Shown: one piece after another, positions 48,024 through 57,515 of the stretch | Position numbering within the stretch: position 1 is the stretch's first letter | How the letters are laid out: every line of letters begins with the position of its first letter | Assembly (NCBI GenBank): GCA_905233945.1 | Contig: CAJOFY010000005.1 | Coordinates: 14,698 to 78,697 of the forward strand | Direction: 5' to 3' | DNA: 64,000 nt | DNA from: an uncultured bacterium | GTDB lineage: Bacteria; UBP6; UBA1177 | Translations under genes and position numbers: made by a program | Notes under the pieces: model-generated | Told to the model about the DNA's origin: nothing | Seen by the model: the letters and a program-made list of their open reading frames with translations, nothing else | Database searches by the model: none

Positions 48024-51000
48024 ATGAACAGAAAGCTTAAAAGGGACTGTGTTCCGCTTACCCAGGCGCAGATCGGTCTTTACATGGACTGGTCCGAAAA
48101 CCCGTCGTCAACAAAATATAATGTGCCGACGCTCTGCCGTCTTCCGCATGGAACTGACAAGTCACGTTTCATCGATGCGGTCAAAACCGTTGTTTCGCAC
48201 CATCCGGCGCTTTTTGCTGTATGCCGCACGGTCCAGGGTGTTCCGTCGATGGTCTACCGCAATCAGGAGATAGCTTTTGAAGAGAAAACTGCTGAAACGA
48301 TCGAAGCGGGAACAAAAGGTTTGTGCAGACCTTTTGACCTTGAGAACGGGCCGCTTTTCCGGTTCATCTACCTCACCACGAAAGAGGGCGACGCGTTTTT
48401 CTTCGATATCCACCACATTGTTATGGACGGAGCTTCCCACAATATTTTTATTCCGCAGATAGCCGCGGTTTACGGCGGAGAAAAGTGCAGCGATGAAGAA
48501 CCGACGTTTTTCGATATAGCTTTTGACGAAGCCGGGAAAGACGATCCTGAAAGAATGCAGCGCTTCCGCGACATGCTTGCGACTAAACTTGACGGCCTTG
48601 AATGCGACTCGCGCCCGATTCCGGATGTCGTTGCCGGGGACGGTGAAGACAAAATGGGAGCAGTTCTTCTTTCGGCTGACGAAAACGGTCTTACTGATGC
48701 TGTCGATTCATACATCAAAGCAAACAAACTCACCGAAAACGCTCTTTTCCAGGCCGCTTTCGGATATACTCTGGCAAAATTCAACGGAGCAAAGGAGAGC
48801 GTCTACACGACGGCGTTCCACGGCCGCGCAAAATCAGCAGCAACAGCTGTCGGAATGTTTGTCCGCACACTGCCGATGCACTGCACATTCGATGAAAACA
48901 GCGCTCCTGCAGAACTCATAAAAACGATGTCAGACTTCTTCTACGAAATGAAGCAGAACGACTGCGTGCCCTTTGCCGAGATCGCGGCGAACTACGGAAT
49001 TTCGACCGATGTCACATTTGTTTACCATTCGGACCTCTTCAAACCTATTCCCTTCGGCAGCTCGGCGATAGAGATCGAACACCTGAACGACATGGATCCG
49101 ATAGCCGATATCGAGTTTCTCGTTATGAAAAAAAGCGGTTCTTTCCAGTTCAAGGCAAAATACAGAAAATCCTGCTACACAGAAGCTTTCATGCAGAGTT
49201 TCACACGGACATACATCAGCGTTCTGAAGGGAATGATCACGGCTGAAAAACTCGGTGATATAGAGCTGACTGATGCCGAAGGAAGAAAACTGCTCGACAG
49301 TTTCAACCTGACTGAAAAGCCTTACGACACCGAACACACCGTCGTCGATCTTTTCAGAGAGCAGGTAAAAAAGACTCCCGACGCACTCTGCCTCGCCTTC
49401 AGGGAAAAACATTTCACATACTCCGAAATCGATAAAATCACCGATAATTTAGCGGCGCATCTTGCCGGAAAAGGGATCGGAAAAGGGAGCGTCGTCGGCG
49501 TTCTCATTCCGAGATGCGAATATATGCTTACCGCATCTTTAGGCGTTCTCAAGGCGGGAGCGGCTTACCTTCCGCTTGATCCGGGATACCCGCCGGAAAG
49601 ACTCAATCTCATGGTAGATGACGCTGAGGCAACGCTTCTAATCACGACTCCCGAACTTCAGCACATCATAACCGACGCTTTCAAAGGCGAGCGGATGATG
49701 GTTTCTGAAATCGACGATCTCCCCGATGCAAAAACCCTTCCGTCCGCTCCGGAAAAAGACGACATCTTCATCATGCTCTACACTTCAGGCTCTACCGGAA
49801 AACCGAAAGGAGTCCTTTTCATGCACAGCAACACGATGGTCACAGCGGCATGGGAGCGCGATTTCTACGCACTCGGACCGGGCTGCAACGTCACGGCTTA
49901 CGCAAGCTACGGATTTGACGCAAATGTTTTCGACACCTACGCAACGATCACTTCCGGCGCGGCTTTGCACATAATCGCAGACGATATCAGGCTTGACCTT
50001 CCCGAACTTCAGAAATATTTCAACGTGAACTCGATAACCCATTCGACGATGACGACTCAGGTAGGGAGACAGTTTGCTCTGATGGAGGGGACAAAGACTC
50101 TGCGCTCGCTTTCGGTAGCCGGTGAAAAGCTCACTCCGCTCGAGCCGCCGAAAGATTTTGCCCTTTACAATCTTTACGGACCTACCGAAGGCTCGATTTT
50201 GGCGACAGGCTTCAGAGTTGACAGGCTCTACAAGGATATTCCGATAGGCAAAGCCATCGACAACGTCAAACTTTACGTCGTCGATCCGTGCGGAAGGCTG
50301 CTTCCCGCCGGGGCTGCGGGCGAACTCTGGCTCAGCGGCGCGCATGTCACGAAAGGATACAAAAACAATCCCGAAAAAACTGCCGCGGCTTACGGCACGA
50401 ACCCCTTCTCGAAAGAAGCGGGATACGACAGAGTTTACCGGACCGGCGACATCGTGCGGATGCTTCCTGACGGCAACATCCAGTTTGTCGGAAGAAGGGA
50501 CGGACAGGTCAAAGTCAGAGGTTTCAGAGTCGAACTCACTGAAATCGAAGAAGTCATCCGCCGTTTCGAAGGGATCAAGGATGTCACGGTAGCAGCTTTT
50601 GACGAAGAGGGAGGCGGCAAATTTGTCGCAGCCTACATCGTTGCCGATACACAGATCGACATCCAGGCTCTCAACGCCTTCATCCGCTCGGAGAAACCGT
50701 ATTACATGGTTCCTGCCGTAACGATGCAGATCGAAAAAATTCCTCTCAACCAGAACCAGAAAGTCGATAAAAGAGCTCTTCCTTATCCGGTAGTAGCGGC
50801 TGCCGAAGATGCCACTCCGCCTGAAACAGAGACGCAGAAGGCGATATTCGACATAGTTGCAGAAGTCATCGGCCGCAAAGGTTTCGGCATCGACACAGAC
50901 CTTTTCGAAGCGGGTTTAACCTCGATCGGAATGCTCAAACTCAACGTCATGCTCGGAAAGGCGTTCGACCTTGCGATAAAACTGAGCGACCTCAAGCAGT

Positions 51001-55301: not shown

Positions 55302-57515
55302 ATGAAACAGTATCGTGTCACGGGAATGAGCTGCGCCGCGTGTCAGGCGCGGGTTGAAAAAGCGGTCGCGAAAGTACCGGGAGTTTCATCGGTTTCGGTG
55401 AGTCTGCTCACAAATTCGATGGGTGTCGAGGGAACGGCGGCGCCGGAAGAAATTATAAAGGCGGTAAAGGCGGCTGGATACGGCGCGAAACTCAAAAAAG
55501 AGAAAAATCTTAGTGAAAAAGATGACGCTCTGGCCGATACCGAAACGCCGAAACTCAAAAAACGGCTTCTTTTTTCGCTTGTTTTCCTGTGCCTTCTCAT
55601 GTACATCACGATGGGAGCGCACATGCTCTCTCTGCCACTTCCGGCTGGGCTTTCGCACAAATATCTGGCTTTGATCCAGATGGTTCTTGCGGCGATAGTG
55701 ATGGCTATAAACAACAAATTTTTTACAAGCGGTTTCCGCGCGCTTCTCCATGCCGCTCCGAATATGGACACCCTTGTCGCGATGGGTTCAGCCGTCTCTT
55801 TCGGATGGAGTTTTTATGTGCTCTGCCTGATTTTCAGGAACGTTGACGGCTGCGCGGAGCTTTATCACAACCGGCTTTACTTTGAATCGGCGGCGATGAT
55901 CCCTGCTCTGATCACAGTCGGGAAACTTCTTGAAGCTCTTTCGAAAGGGAAGACTACAAGCGCGCTCAAAAGCCTGATGAAACTTGCCCCTAAGACTGCC
56001 GTTCTTGTGCGTGACGGAAACGAAGTCGAAGTTCCGGTTTCCGAAGTGAAAATAGGCGACATCTTCGTCGTCAGACCGGGGCAGAGTGTTTCAGCCGACG
56101 GAACTGTCATCGAAGGGAGCGCGGCTCTTAATGAATCGGCTCTGACAGGCGAATCCGTTCCCGTTGACAAGACAGAAGGCGACCGCGTCAGTGCGGCTAC
56201 GATCAATATGTCCGGTTTTATCAGGTGCAGGGCTGAAAGGATCGGTAATGACACGACTTTGTCGCAGATAATCCGCATGGTTTCCGATGCTGCTGCGACA
56301 AAAGCTCCGATTGCAAGAATCGCCGACAAGGTTTCGGGCGTTTTCGTTCCGGCGGTGATTTTCATCGCTCTGATCGTCGTTATCGGCTGGCTGCTGGCCG
56401 GGGAATCTCTCGGTTTTGCACTTGCGAGAGGGATCTGCGTCCTCGTCATTTCGTGTCCGTGCGCCTTGGGTCTGGCGACGCCTGTCGCGATCATGGTGGG
56501 AAGCGGGCTCGGCGCGAAAAACGGGATCCTTTTCAAAACAAGCGAAGCCCTTGAGACTATAGGAAAAATCAGAACTATAGCCCTCGACAAAACGGGAACT
56601 GTGACAAAAGGCGAACCCGAAGTGACCGACATCGTTCCGGCTCAAGGGATTTCTGAAAAAGAGCTGCTTGAAAAGGCGTTTTCGCTTGAAGAAAAAAGCG
56701 AACATCCCCTTGCAAAAGCGGTTGTGAAAAAGGGGAGGGATTCAAACCTTGAAACCTTGGAAACCTCAGATTTCCAGGCGTTTCCCGGCAACGGACTTTC
56801 CGCCGTGATCAACGGAAAAACGCTTCACGCCGGAAGCAGAAAATATATTGAAAGTTTCGCTGAAATTCCGGCTGAAACCGAAAAGGCTGCCGAAAACGCT
56901 GCGGACTGTGGAAAAACTCCGCTATTTTTTGAAGAAAACGGCTCGCTTCTTGGAATTATCGCAGTTGCCGACACGATAAAGGAAGATTCCGCTCCGGCAA
57001 TAAAAGAAGTCAAAGATTTAGGTTTAAAAGTCGTGATGCTGACGGGTGACAACAGCAGAACAGCCAAGGCGATAGCCGCTTCATGCGGGATCGACGAATG
57101 GGTCTCGGATGTTCTTCCGCAGGGAAAAGCAGCAGAAATCGAAAAACTTCAGAAAGGTGGAAAAGTCGCGATGGTCGGTGACGGAATCAACGATTCCCCC
57201 GCATTGACAAAGGCCGACACTGGCATCGCGATCGGCGCTGGAACAGATGTCGCAATAGATTCGGCGGACATCGTGCTTGTGAACAGCTCGCTTTCCGATG
57301 TCGCAGCGGCAGTACGTCTCGGAAGGGCGACGGTGCGTAACATCCACGAAAACCTTTTCTGGGCGTTTTTCTACAATTTGATATGCATTCCGATGGCTGC
57401 GGGACTTTTCGGCCTTGAAATGAACCCGATGCTCGGAGCTGCGGCGATGAGTTTGTCCAGTTTTACTGTCTGCATGAACGCGCTCAGGCTCAATTTTTTT
57501 AAAATAAGACATTAA
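55302..57515 (+). CDS. copA: Copper(I)-translocating P1B-type ATPase
   Basis: N-terminal HMA GMSCAACQ; TM CPC motif, YN and MSLSS Cu-selectivity motifs; DKTGT, GDGINDSPAL; starts 4 nt after NRPS stop. Confidence 0.85.
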   Translation: MKQYRVTGMSCAACQARVEKAVAKVPGVSSVSVSLLTNSMGVEGTAAPEEIIKAVKAAGYGAKLKKEKNLSEKDDALADTETPKLKKRLLFSLVFLCLLMYITMGAHMLSLPLPAGLSHKYLALIQMVLAAIVMAINNKFFTSGFRALLHAAPNMDTLVAMGSAVSFGWSFYVLCLIFRNVDGCAELYHNRLYFESAAMIPALITVGKLLEALSKGKTTSALKSLMKLAPKTAVLVRDGNEVEVPVSEVKIGDIFVVRPGQSVSADGTVIEGSAALNESALTGESVPVDKTEGDRVSAATINMSGFIRCRAERIGNDTTLSQIIRMVSDAAATKAPIARIADKVSGVFVPAVIFIALIVVIGWLLAGESLGFALARGICVLVISCPCALGLATPVAIMVGSGLGAKNGILFKTSEALETIGKIRTIALDKTGTVTKGEPEVTDIVPAQGISEKELLEKAFSLEEKSEHPLAKAVVKKGRDSNLETLETSDFQAFPGNGLSAVINGKTLHAGSRKYIESFAEIPAETEKAAENAADCGKTPLFFEENGSLLGIIAVADTIKEDSAPAIKEVKDLGLKVVMLTGDNSRTAKAIAASCGIDEWVSDVLPQGKAAEIEKLQKGGKVAMVGDGINDSPALTKADTGIAIGAGTDVAIDSADIVLVNSSLSDVAAAVRLGRATVRNIHENLFWAFFYNLICIPMAAGLFGLEMNPMLGAAAMSLSSFTVCMNALRLNFFKIRH

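Follow-up and report, generated by a model that had tools for sequence, protein, structure and literature searches.

A gut/rumen-type reductase-terminated peptide synthetase with partner-switching genes on a strain-variable insertion beside copA

The DNA described here, referred to as the window, is a stretch of 64,000 nucleotides (nt) from an uncultured bacterium (GTDB lineage Bacteria; UBP6; UBA1177; assembly GCA_905233945.1, contig CAJOFY010000005.1, positions 14,698 to 78,697 of the forward strand). It carries a gene for a non-ribosomal peptide synthetase (NRPS), directly followed by copA and preceded, across a defence island, by genes for an Sfp-type 4'-phosphopantetheinyl transferase (PPTase), a STAS protein and a membrane-bound sensor (Table 1). 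All of these except copA lie on an insertion that is absent from other strains of the same species, and the PPTase, STAS and sensor genes are the conserved partners of the NRPS.

The NRPS open reading frame (ORF) starts with ATG and encodes 2424 amino acids (aa) without interruption over 7.3 kb. Pfam recognises two each of the Condensation, AMP-binding and PP-binding stretches and, at the C-terminus, one NAD_binding_4 domain, and the catalytic motifs are intact across the condensation (C), adenylation (A), carrier (T) and reductase (R) domains, e.g., the A3 motif SGSTGKPKG at residues 588 and 1598. The domain order is C-A-T-C-A-T-R, as had been read in a preliminary description of the window. 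The intact YxxSK reductase named there is present as well: the R domain has GCVGFLG (G2067-x-x-G-x-x-G), the threonine of QISTTS (T2191, invariant in the sequence alignment) and Y2224-L-L-S-K2228. The A1 specificity code is identical in the homologues on contigs L001 and L002 and near-identical in L014, L011 and L004. The A2 code varies across the NRPS family; it was taken from a four-sequence alignment with motif-anchored reading, pairwise MAFFT alignment being unstable at positions 330/331. Compared with the L001 homologue, dN/dS is 0.079 overall and 0.03-0.13 per domain (0.13 for C1), and the NRPS is under purifying selection.

Table 1. Positions of the genes, domains and junctions discussed, in window coordinates.
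Feature	Position	Strand	Remarks
GNAT acetyltransferase	34337..35104	+	core-genome left flank; last codons replaced by the insertion
Strain-variable 20.2-kb insertion	35093..55289		NRPS cassette with nested defence island; absent from L089-L091
Sfp-type PPTase	35161..35883	+	first cassette gene; Pfam ACPS and AASDHPPT_N
STAS protein, single-domain, 97 aa	35852..36145	+	anti-sigma-antagonist type; Pfam STAS/STAS_2; YISSAGL serine motif
Membrane sensor, 649 aa	36142..38091	+	transmembrane (TM) segment, ~160-aa extracytoplasmic region, TM, HAMP, PP2C (SpoIIE), RsbW-type HATPase_c_2
Defence island, 9.9 kb	38082..48012		between sensor gene and NRPS; all genes on the minus strand
YhcG/DUF1016 PD-(D/E)xK nuclease	39528..40559	-	PADLOC candidate PDC-S02
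Schlafen AlbA_2 + HATPase_c_4 protein	40602..42041	-	paralogue of 45412..46866
Type IIG restriction-modification enzyme	42203..45205	-	fused specificity domain; Pfam N6_Mtase and Methylase_S; PADLOC REase_MTase_IIG, E 2.5e-160
Second Schlafen AlbA_2 + HATPase_c_4 protein	45412..46866	-	island gene
Toxin-antitoxin pair	47084..47726	-	Gp49-family toxin 47355..47726, HTH_3 antitoxin 47084..47371; island edge, facing away from NRPS
NRPS	48024..55298	+	C-A-T-C-A-T-R; homologues at 96%, 87% and 86% identity, hundreds at 35-60%
C1, N-terminal condensation domain	48045..49313	+	HHIVMDG at residue 130; presumed N-acylating step
A1 adenylation domain	49368..50789	+	10-residue code DAFTSALILK; aligned to LgrA A domain, GrsA register
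T1 carrier domain	50841..51038	+	Ser967 in GLTS (964-967)
C2 condensation domain	51072..52310	+	HHIVSDG at residue 1139
A2 adenylation domain	52368..53834	+	code ~DMMFLGGITK, hydrophobic pocket
T2 carrier domain	53892..54080	+	Ser1984 in FFEMGGTS; GGTS at 1981-1984
R domain, terminal thioester reductase	54210..55295	+	Pfam NAD_binding_4; GxxGxxG at 2067; Y2224xxxK2228
Right junction of insertion	55290..55297	+	8-nt GAGGAATA
copA, Cu(I) P1B-type ATPase	55302..57515	+	core-genome gene flanking the insertion, outside the cluster

The extent of the insertion is given by three conspecific contigs (L089, L090 and L091), which have 17 nt in place of window 35093..55289. By blastn, window 34337-35092 matches these contigs at 92% and 55290-64000 at 97-98.5%, and nothing between them matches; the flanks are 97-99.5% identical to the window and CopA is 99% identical. 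The GNAT gene is 91.8% identical to that of L089, versus 98-99.5% for the flanks. At this empty site the GNAT gene stands directly before copA, its stop overlapping the copA start (TGATG), and the insertion has replaced the last nine GNAT codons.

At the right junction (window 55240-55330 compared with L089 9961-10020), the octanucleotide GAGGAATA (window 55290-55297; L089 9989-9996) occurs both at the 3' end of the NRPS gene, as its final codons (GAG GAA TAg), and at the empty site, where it is the ribosome-binding (Shine-Dalgarno) region of copA. DNA similarity of the window to its NRPS relatives stops at 55297, inside the NRPS stop codon. That stop (TAG, 55296-55298) is followed by ttt and the copA ATG at 55302, so that copA starts at the fourth nucleotide past it with three nucleotides between, as the preliminary description had located it. 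This 3-nt spacing is a by-product of recombination at the GAGGAATA microhomology, which is also the only clue to the insertion mechanism: in a search of 34900-55400, neither the 20.2-kb insertion nor the 9.9-kb island proved to be bordered by direct or inverted repeats, no integrase or transposase is encoded in the cassette, and an XerC/D-like gene (15088..15963) lies 19 kb away in core sequence.

The genes on the far side of the junction differ between relatives. On L001, whose NRPS is 96% identical at the aa and 92.9% at the nt level, the next gene downstream encodes a 948-aa protein, and on L002 and L003 (NRPS 87% identical at the aa level) a convergent 410-aa gene follows; no NRPS precedes the copA relatives at 96%, 94% and 82% identity. 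The 737-aa copA product (Pfam HMA, E1-E2_ATPase and Hydrolase) is identified as a Cu(I)-type P1B ATPase by its motifs, with CAAC at residue 11, CPC at 385, DKTGT at 429 and SEHPL at 466. Its named relatives at ~70% identity are from Oscillospiraceae and Clostridia, and the sources name the homologues copper-translocating ATPase; it is an ordinary CopA-type ATPase, normally coupled to the GNAT gene.

The composition of the cassette follows from the same relatives. L002 and L003 carry, in a row, genes for a PPTase, a STAS protein, a HAMP-SpoIIE-HATPase_c_2 protein and the NRPS, the last two 4 nt apart. L002 aligns to window 35124-38081 and 48013-55297, two segments that are contiguous in L002, and the alignment resumes 11 nt before the NRPS start; the window genes at 35161..38091 have 76% nt identity to L002. 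The real unit is a PPTase, a STAS protein, a HAMP-PP2C-RsbW-type kinase and the NRPS, split in this strain by the defence island. In the preliminary description the Sfp-type PPTase was correctly placed beside partner-switching genes (ACPS and AASDHPPT_N domains, followed by STAS and HAMP-SpoIIE-HATPase_c_2); it was overlooked that these genes, recorded as "12 kb upstream", are the conserved partners of the NRPS. In the sensor, whose TM segments were read by eye, Pfam detects SpoIIE (E 3.6e-49) and HATPase_c_2 (E 2.3e-12), and the kinase domain has the N (EEAFVN), G1 (DNGIRFDP) and G2 (GGMGISL) boxes. By these domains, the STAS protein and the sensor, as a bifunctional phosphatase/kinase, make up a partner-switching module, in which the sensor is probably able to add phosphate to the STAS protein as well as to remove it.

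The genes of the intervening island were identified by Pfam and PADLOC and include, besides those in Table 1, one for a 235-aa protein without family match; no recombinase is encoded in it. Its GC content is 0.35-0.43, compared with ~0.46 around the island and 0.50 in the NRPS. Repeated leader and promoter segments occur inside the island: copies of 61 nt start at 38375, 39463 and 40555, and others of 63 nt are found at 46879 and 47794. Just past the sensor stop, at the left edge of the island (38092-38200), lies a GC-rich stretch in which complementary segments occur (…CCCTGACCCTTCTCCAGTGTGGCGAAGGG… …CTCTCACTCAGGGAGAGGTGGCAGCCGAAGGCTGACGGAG).

The search for relatives of the NRPS yielded 1403 scored homologues, three of them close (96%, 87% and 86% identity, ~2424 aa) and hundreds at 35-60%. 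In a scan with one genome per species, the best match reaches 65% identity on a fragment, and the relatives at 35-65% are from metagenome-assembled genomes of animal or human gut or rumen, assigned to Rikenellaceae, Candidatus Minthomonas (Bacteroidales), Acutalibacteraceae, Lachnospiraceae, Blautia, Ruminococcus, Erysipelotrichaceae, Muribaculaceae and Clostridia. Matches at 31% identity or less are generic soil or aquatic NRPSs, mostly covering C-A-T-C-A-T only and not the R domain. Relatives that begin with a C domain and measure 2413-2459 aa are numerous and occur in different taxa. Judged by these relationships, the NRPS belongs to the gut/rumen reductase-terminated peptide-aldehyde family as a new member, with a chemistry that is already known for the family; the links to characterised family clusters are indirect, via the Blautia, Ruminococcus and CAG:95 loci and the Mru_0351 R domain. 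The nearest relatives of the cassette are found in Bacteroidales and Clostridia, and the cassette itself occupies three different contexts, which points to horizontal transfer.

Flanking ORFs were clustered for 52 loci, and 43 gut-family loci were searched with domain-level queries at up to 8 kb from the NRPS. Partner-switching genes lie near the NRPS in 34 of the 43 family loci. HATPase_c_2 was found in 34, STAS in 31, PP2C in 21 and a PPTase in 23; fusions of PP2C with HATPase_c_2 were found in 16 and fusions of MatE with HATPase_c_2 in 21, and a copA-like gene in a single locus (L038, on the opposite strand). No sigma-factor family occurs among the conserved neighbours of the 52 loci or in the window at 35-38 kb; an unlinked one is possible.

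The family to which these comparisons lead is known from gut commensals, in which a widespread class of NRPSs makes dipeptide aldehydes that inhibit host proteases; some of the aldehydes form pyrazinones by cyclisation, and an N-acyl tail stabilises others (PMC8210680; PMC12327764). The window NRPS is similar to the gut-commensal dipeptide-aldehyde family of Guo et al. 2017, Cell 168:517 (via PMC8210680, PMC12327764), in being a small reductase-terminated NRPS of a gut anaerobe, with relatives from Blautia, Lachnospiraceae, Ruminococcus and Clostridia at 37-45% identity. It differs from that family in its host, apparently a diderm animal-gut bacterium, and in the splitting of its cluster by a defence island. 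The products of the ruminopeptin (rup) pathway of Ruminococcus bromii are reportedly N-acylated and inhibit proteases. This pathway, too, has a gut NRPS, and its products are dipeptide aldehydes, the aldehyde being taken as the active form (PMC12327764; Schneider & Balskus 2018, Tetrahedron 74:3215, via PMC12327764). With AusA/PznA of Staphylococcus aureus the window NRPS shares the dimodular build and a homologous aldehyde-releasing R domain; AusA, however, is A-T-C-A-T-R without an N-terminal C domain, releases a free aldehyde that becomes a pyrazinone, and has no partner-switching genes.

The R domain of the window NRPS has as its best solved match the carrier protein-reductase (PCP-R) structure of Mru_0351 from Methanobrevibacter ruminantium (6VTJ, E 8.8e-73; PMC8024701); it matches the aldehyde-forming AusA R domain 4F6C with E 2.8e-38, versus 1.3e-11 for the alcohol-forming MxaA. 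An N-acyl dipeptide aldehyde is the most likely product. The reductive release of a (probably N-acylated) dipeptide aldehyde, foreseen in the preliminary description, is in line with this Mru_0351/AusA-like R domain and with the gut/rumen family.

The N-acyl part of this prediction concerns C1, which keeps HHIVMDG and precedes the first A domain. NRPS relatives of ~2975-3000 aa (L004, L007, L027 and L063; 50-58% identity) have an extra N-terminal A0-T0 of ~570 aa, which stands before the C domain orthologous to C1. In A domains, Asp235 binds the alpha-amino group. The A0 domains of these four relatives are without Asp235 (codes LLIIICGAFK, MAFWLGVGIK, IVSYIVGGGK and IVSFIVGGGK) and would therefore load an acid, not an amino acid, which supports C1 as an acyl-accepting step. 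The predicted status of C1 as a starter domain thus draws on its N-terminal position and on its orthology to the acyl-accepting C domain of the long relatives. Other arrangements exist in the family as well: in the Blautia-type relatives L015 and L022 A0 has the Asp, and these may make tripeptide aldehydes, while the NRPSs of L009 and L017 have three and four modules.

The best explanation of the locus, which is held with good confidence, is that a gut/rumen reductase-terminated NRPS makes a small peptide aldehyde and is carried on an accessory cassette, its copA neighbour being incidental. In the proposed mechanism, the Sfp-type PPTase would prime T1 and T2, and A1 and A2 would load two amino acids, the A2 pocket being predicted to be hydrophobic. 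C1 would most likely move an acyl group from a donor in trans (acyl-CoA or acyl-ACP) onto amino acid 1, and C2 would make the dipeptide. The R domain would then use NAD(P)H to release the N-acyl dipeptide aldehyde, which may act as a covalent-reversible protease inhibitor. The partner switch presumably couples product formation or release to an envelope or extracellular signal. The cassette sits between the GNAT gene and copA as the 20.2-kb accessory insertion and is split by the 9.9-kb island, so that the NRPS would now be read from its own AT-rich upstream region.

Several observations weigh against this explanation. To our knowledge, the codes DAFTSALILK and ~DMMFLGGITK match no textbook code. 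The nearest solved structures of C1 are elongation C domains (TycC, BacC, LgrA and PvdL), no known starter-C structure is among its PDB matches at E <= 1e-5, and the cassette holds neither an acyl-activating gene nor a starter-unit carrier. For the STAS protein, the subfamily of the window offers no sigma factor and no other evident output partner, and the PPTase operon and the NRPS are kept apart by the island, so that co-regulation may have been lost in this strain. Lastly, two- and four-electron reduction are indistinguishable from sequence (PMC8024701); the aldehyde is favoured over the alcohol by the similarity to AusA and by family precedent, which suggest it rather than prove it.

Part of these points would be accounted for if C1 were a donorless relic and the free dipeptide aldehyde cyclised to a dihydropyrazinone or pyrazinone, as with AusA, giving a signal and not a protease inhibitor. 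The elongation-type structural matches of C1 and the lack of an acyl-loading gene in the cassette agree with this, as does the fact that the C1 orthologue of the longer relatives is fed by a cis A0-T0 that is missing here; in addition, free dipeptide aldehydes of the family have been isolated as pyrazinones (PMC12327764). Nevertheless, such a loss of function is unlikely, since C1 has its HHxxxDG motif intact and evolves under purifying selection (dN/dS 0.13), the C-first relatives of 2413-2459 aa are many and taxonomically spread, and an N-terminal C domain is generally tied to N-acylated products (PMC2812497; PMC8210680).

Release of an N-acyl dipeptide alcohol by four-electron reduction is considered rather unlikely. 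The same-fold reductases MxaA and Mtb R give alcohols (PMC8024701), and MxaA does match the R domain, yet the closest functionally characterised R domain is that of AusA, by the E values given above, and the characterised gut family members yield aldehydes.

It is very unlikely that the cluster is decaying, with the NRPS cut off by the island from its operon promoter and regulators and carried along as silent cargo. The 9.9-kb island does lie between the sensor gene and the NRPS, and consensus matches to promoters and terminators around the NRPS, copA and the regulator operon, including the promoter-like ones upstream of the NRPS, do not exceed the numbers obtained with shuffled sequence. A scan of the whole window with Rfam at gathering thresholds gave no match, and therefore no riboswitch or leader is indicated upstream of the NRPS or copA. 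Against decay, the 7.3-kb ORF is uninterrupted. Furthermore, window 47918-48023, directly upstream of the NRPS, matches L001 73-180, and a TTGAAA-N17-TATAAA element (read by eye) is conserved in both upstream regions. Since this upstream sequence is common to the window and L001, the junction between island and NRPS predates the split of the two lineages, and the dN/dS of 0.079 between them indicates that selection on the NRPS continued after the island had been inserted.

The idea put forward in the preliminary description, that the NRPS works together with copA as one functional system (for a metallophore, for Cu-dependent maturation or for self-protection linked to export by the pump, with translational coupling as its sign), can be dismissed as extremely improbable: the two genes are 3 nt apart with no terminator-like site, so that in this strain copA is probably co-transcribed with its neighbour, but in conspecific strains it overlaps the GNAT gene and no NRPS is present, similarity among the closest NRPS relatives ends at the stop codon, with other genes following the 96% and 87% relatives, a copA-like gene is found in one of 43 family loci, on the opposite strand, and the cassette is without chelator-type chemistry. 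With respect to the last point, Pfam detects neither Cy domains nor genes of hydroxamate or catechol type in the cassette, nor any for a receptor or importer, and thiol tailoring genes are likewise missing from it, the genes for the PPTase, the STAS protein, the PP2C-kinase and the NRPS being the only ones. Homologous clusters are thus found without copA and the spacing of the two genes is incidental; the probable read-through from the NRPS into copA in this strain results from the insertion rather than from design.

What the partner switch acts upon may be indicated by the relatives. In 21 of the 43 related loci (L009, L013, L015-L023, L028-L030, L033, L035, L037-L039, L050 and L078), the NRPS is accompanied by a protein of ~580-625 aa that consists of MatE and a C-terminal, RsbW-type HATPase_c_2 domain, e.g., L015:8210-9955 and L050:8106-9905; its gene lies mostly on the same strand as the NRPS and within ~200 nt. 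The architecture was confirmed by Pfam in all 11 of the 11 proteins tested. In an alignment with hand-entered SpoIIAB and RsbW guide sequences, the MATE-fused HATPase_c_2 domains keep the N and G1 boxes and have lost the GGxG ATP-lid motif of G2, whereas the PP2C-fused and the small stand-alone HATPase_c_2 domains of the same loci keep G2. This may be a new lead, namely, an exporter with a fused degenerate kinase domain. As a tentative possibility, the partner switch would act on the pathway post-translationally and not via a sigma factor, with the unphosphorylated STAS protein docking on the pseudo-kinase of the exporter and thereby gating aldehyde efflux. The window contains no MATE gene or MATE fusion, and in its subfamily the pair of STAS protein and sensor would have to act on something else, perhaps on the NRPS itself or on an exporter that is not linked to it.

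Partner-switching modules without a linked sigma factor follow the RsbU/V/W logic; examples with fused functions are SypE/SypA of Vibrio fischeri and Rv1364c of M. tuberculosis. The window module is like those without a linked sigma factor in its phosphorylatable STAS serine, in having PP2C and RsbW-type kinase on one polypeptide, and in its place at a biosynthetic locus. It is unlike them in its input, TM-sensor-TM-HAMP. For NRPS clusters of this kind, a literature search for STAS or partner switching found only Leahy et al. 2010 (PMC2812497), where the link of an NRPS with serine phosphatases, an anti-sigma antagonist and MatE was already described. The NRPS mru0068 of M. ruminantium M1, with two C-A-T modules and a terminal domain called thioesterase in the main text and thioester reductase in the legend of Figure S8, is flanked there by a pair of serine phosphatases together with an anti-sigma factor antagonist and MatE; a separate cluster of PPTase, acyltransferase, phosphatase, antagonist and kinase is present, and roles in sensing, regulation and export were proposed (PMC2812497). 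The window resembles mru0068 in the partner-switching neighbours of its NRPS, and its R domain is closest to that of mru0351. It differs in that the M. ruminantium loci have an archaeal host and separate MatE and phosphatase genes, while in the subfamily of the window no MATE is part of the cassette and phosphatase and kinase are fused in one membrane protein.

The reading of the locus as a metal-linked natural product cluster is replaced here by that of an ordinary member of a microbiome family of protease-inhibitor synthetases, and this NRPS family is extended into a poorly known, apparently diderm gut lineage. The locus is a natural example of a minimal mobile cassette of PPTase, switch and NRPS, since the empty site and three landing contexts delimit the cluster. 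From the conservation of the partner-switching genes, these pathways have a further level of control that has seemingly never been tested and that in relatives includes the exporters with a fused degenerate kinase domain; it could explain why the products of such clusters were hard to detect in culture.

As to the host, a FadL-like outer membrane protein is encoded at 9398..10996 and TonB, OEP and RND proteins on syntenic contigs; it is therefore apparently a diderm gut bacterium of a poorly known lineage. The DnaB protein of the window (61965-63380) has at most ~36% identity to sequences from named phyla, and its relatives down to ~50% are labelled "[bacterium]" only. In the rpsF-rpsR-rplI-dnaB row of the window, no ssb stands between the genes for S6 and S18.

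Downstream of copA, at a distance of 0.7 kb, stands a gene for a gingipain-family cysteine protease (Peptidase_C25, 58212..60569), which is curious next to a pathway that may make a protease inhibitor. It was considered as a target or partner and rejected, as it belongs to the core genome and is present in empty-site strains. Just upstream of the GNAT gene, a second segment (31684-34336) is strain-variable. In the window it encodes a Fic protein (PADLOC SoFic, 31790..32953), a RelB-type antitoxin (33093..33365) and a hexapeptide-repeat transferase (33681..34340), and in the conspecific L089 its place is taken by a 121-aa ORF and an ORF6N gene.

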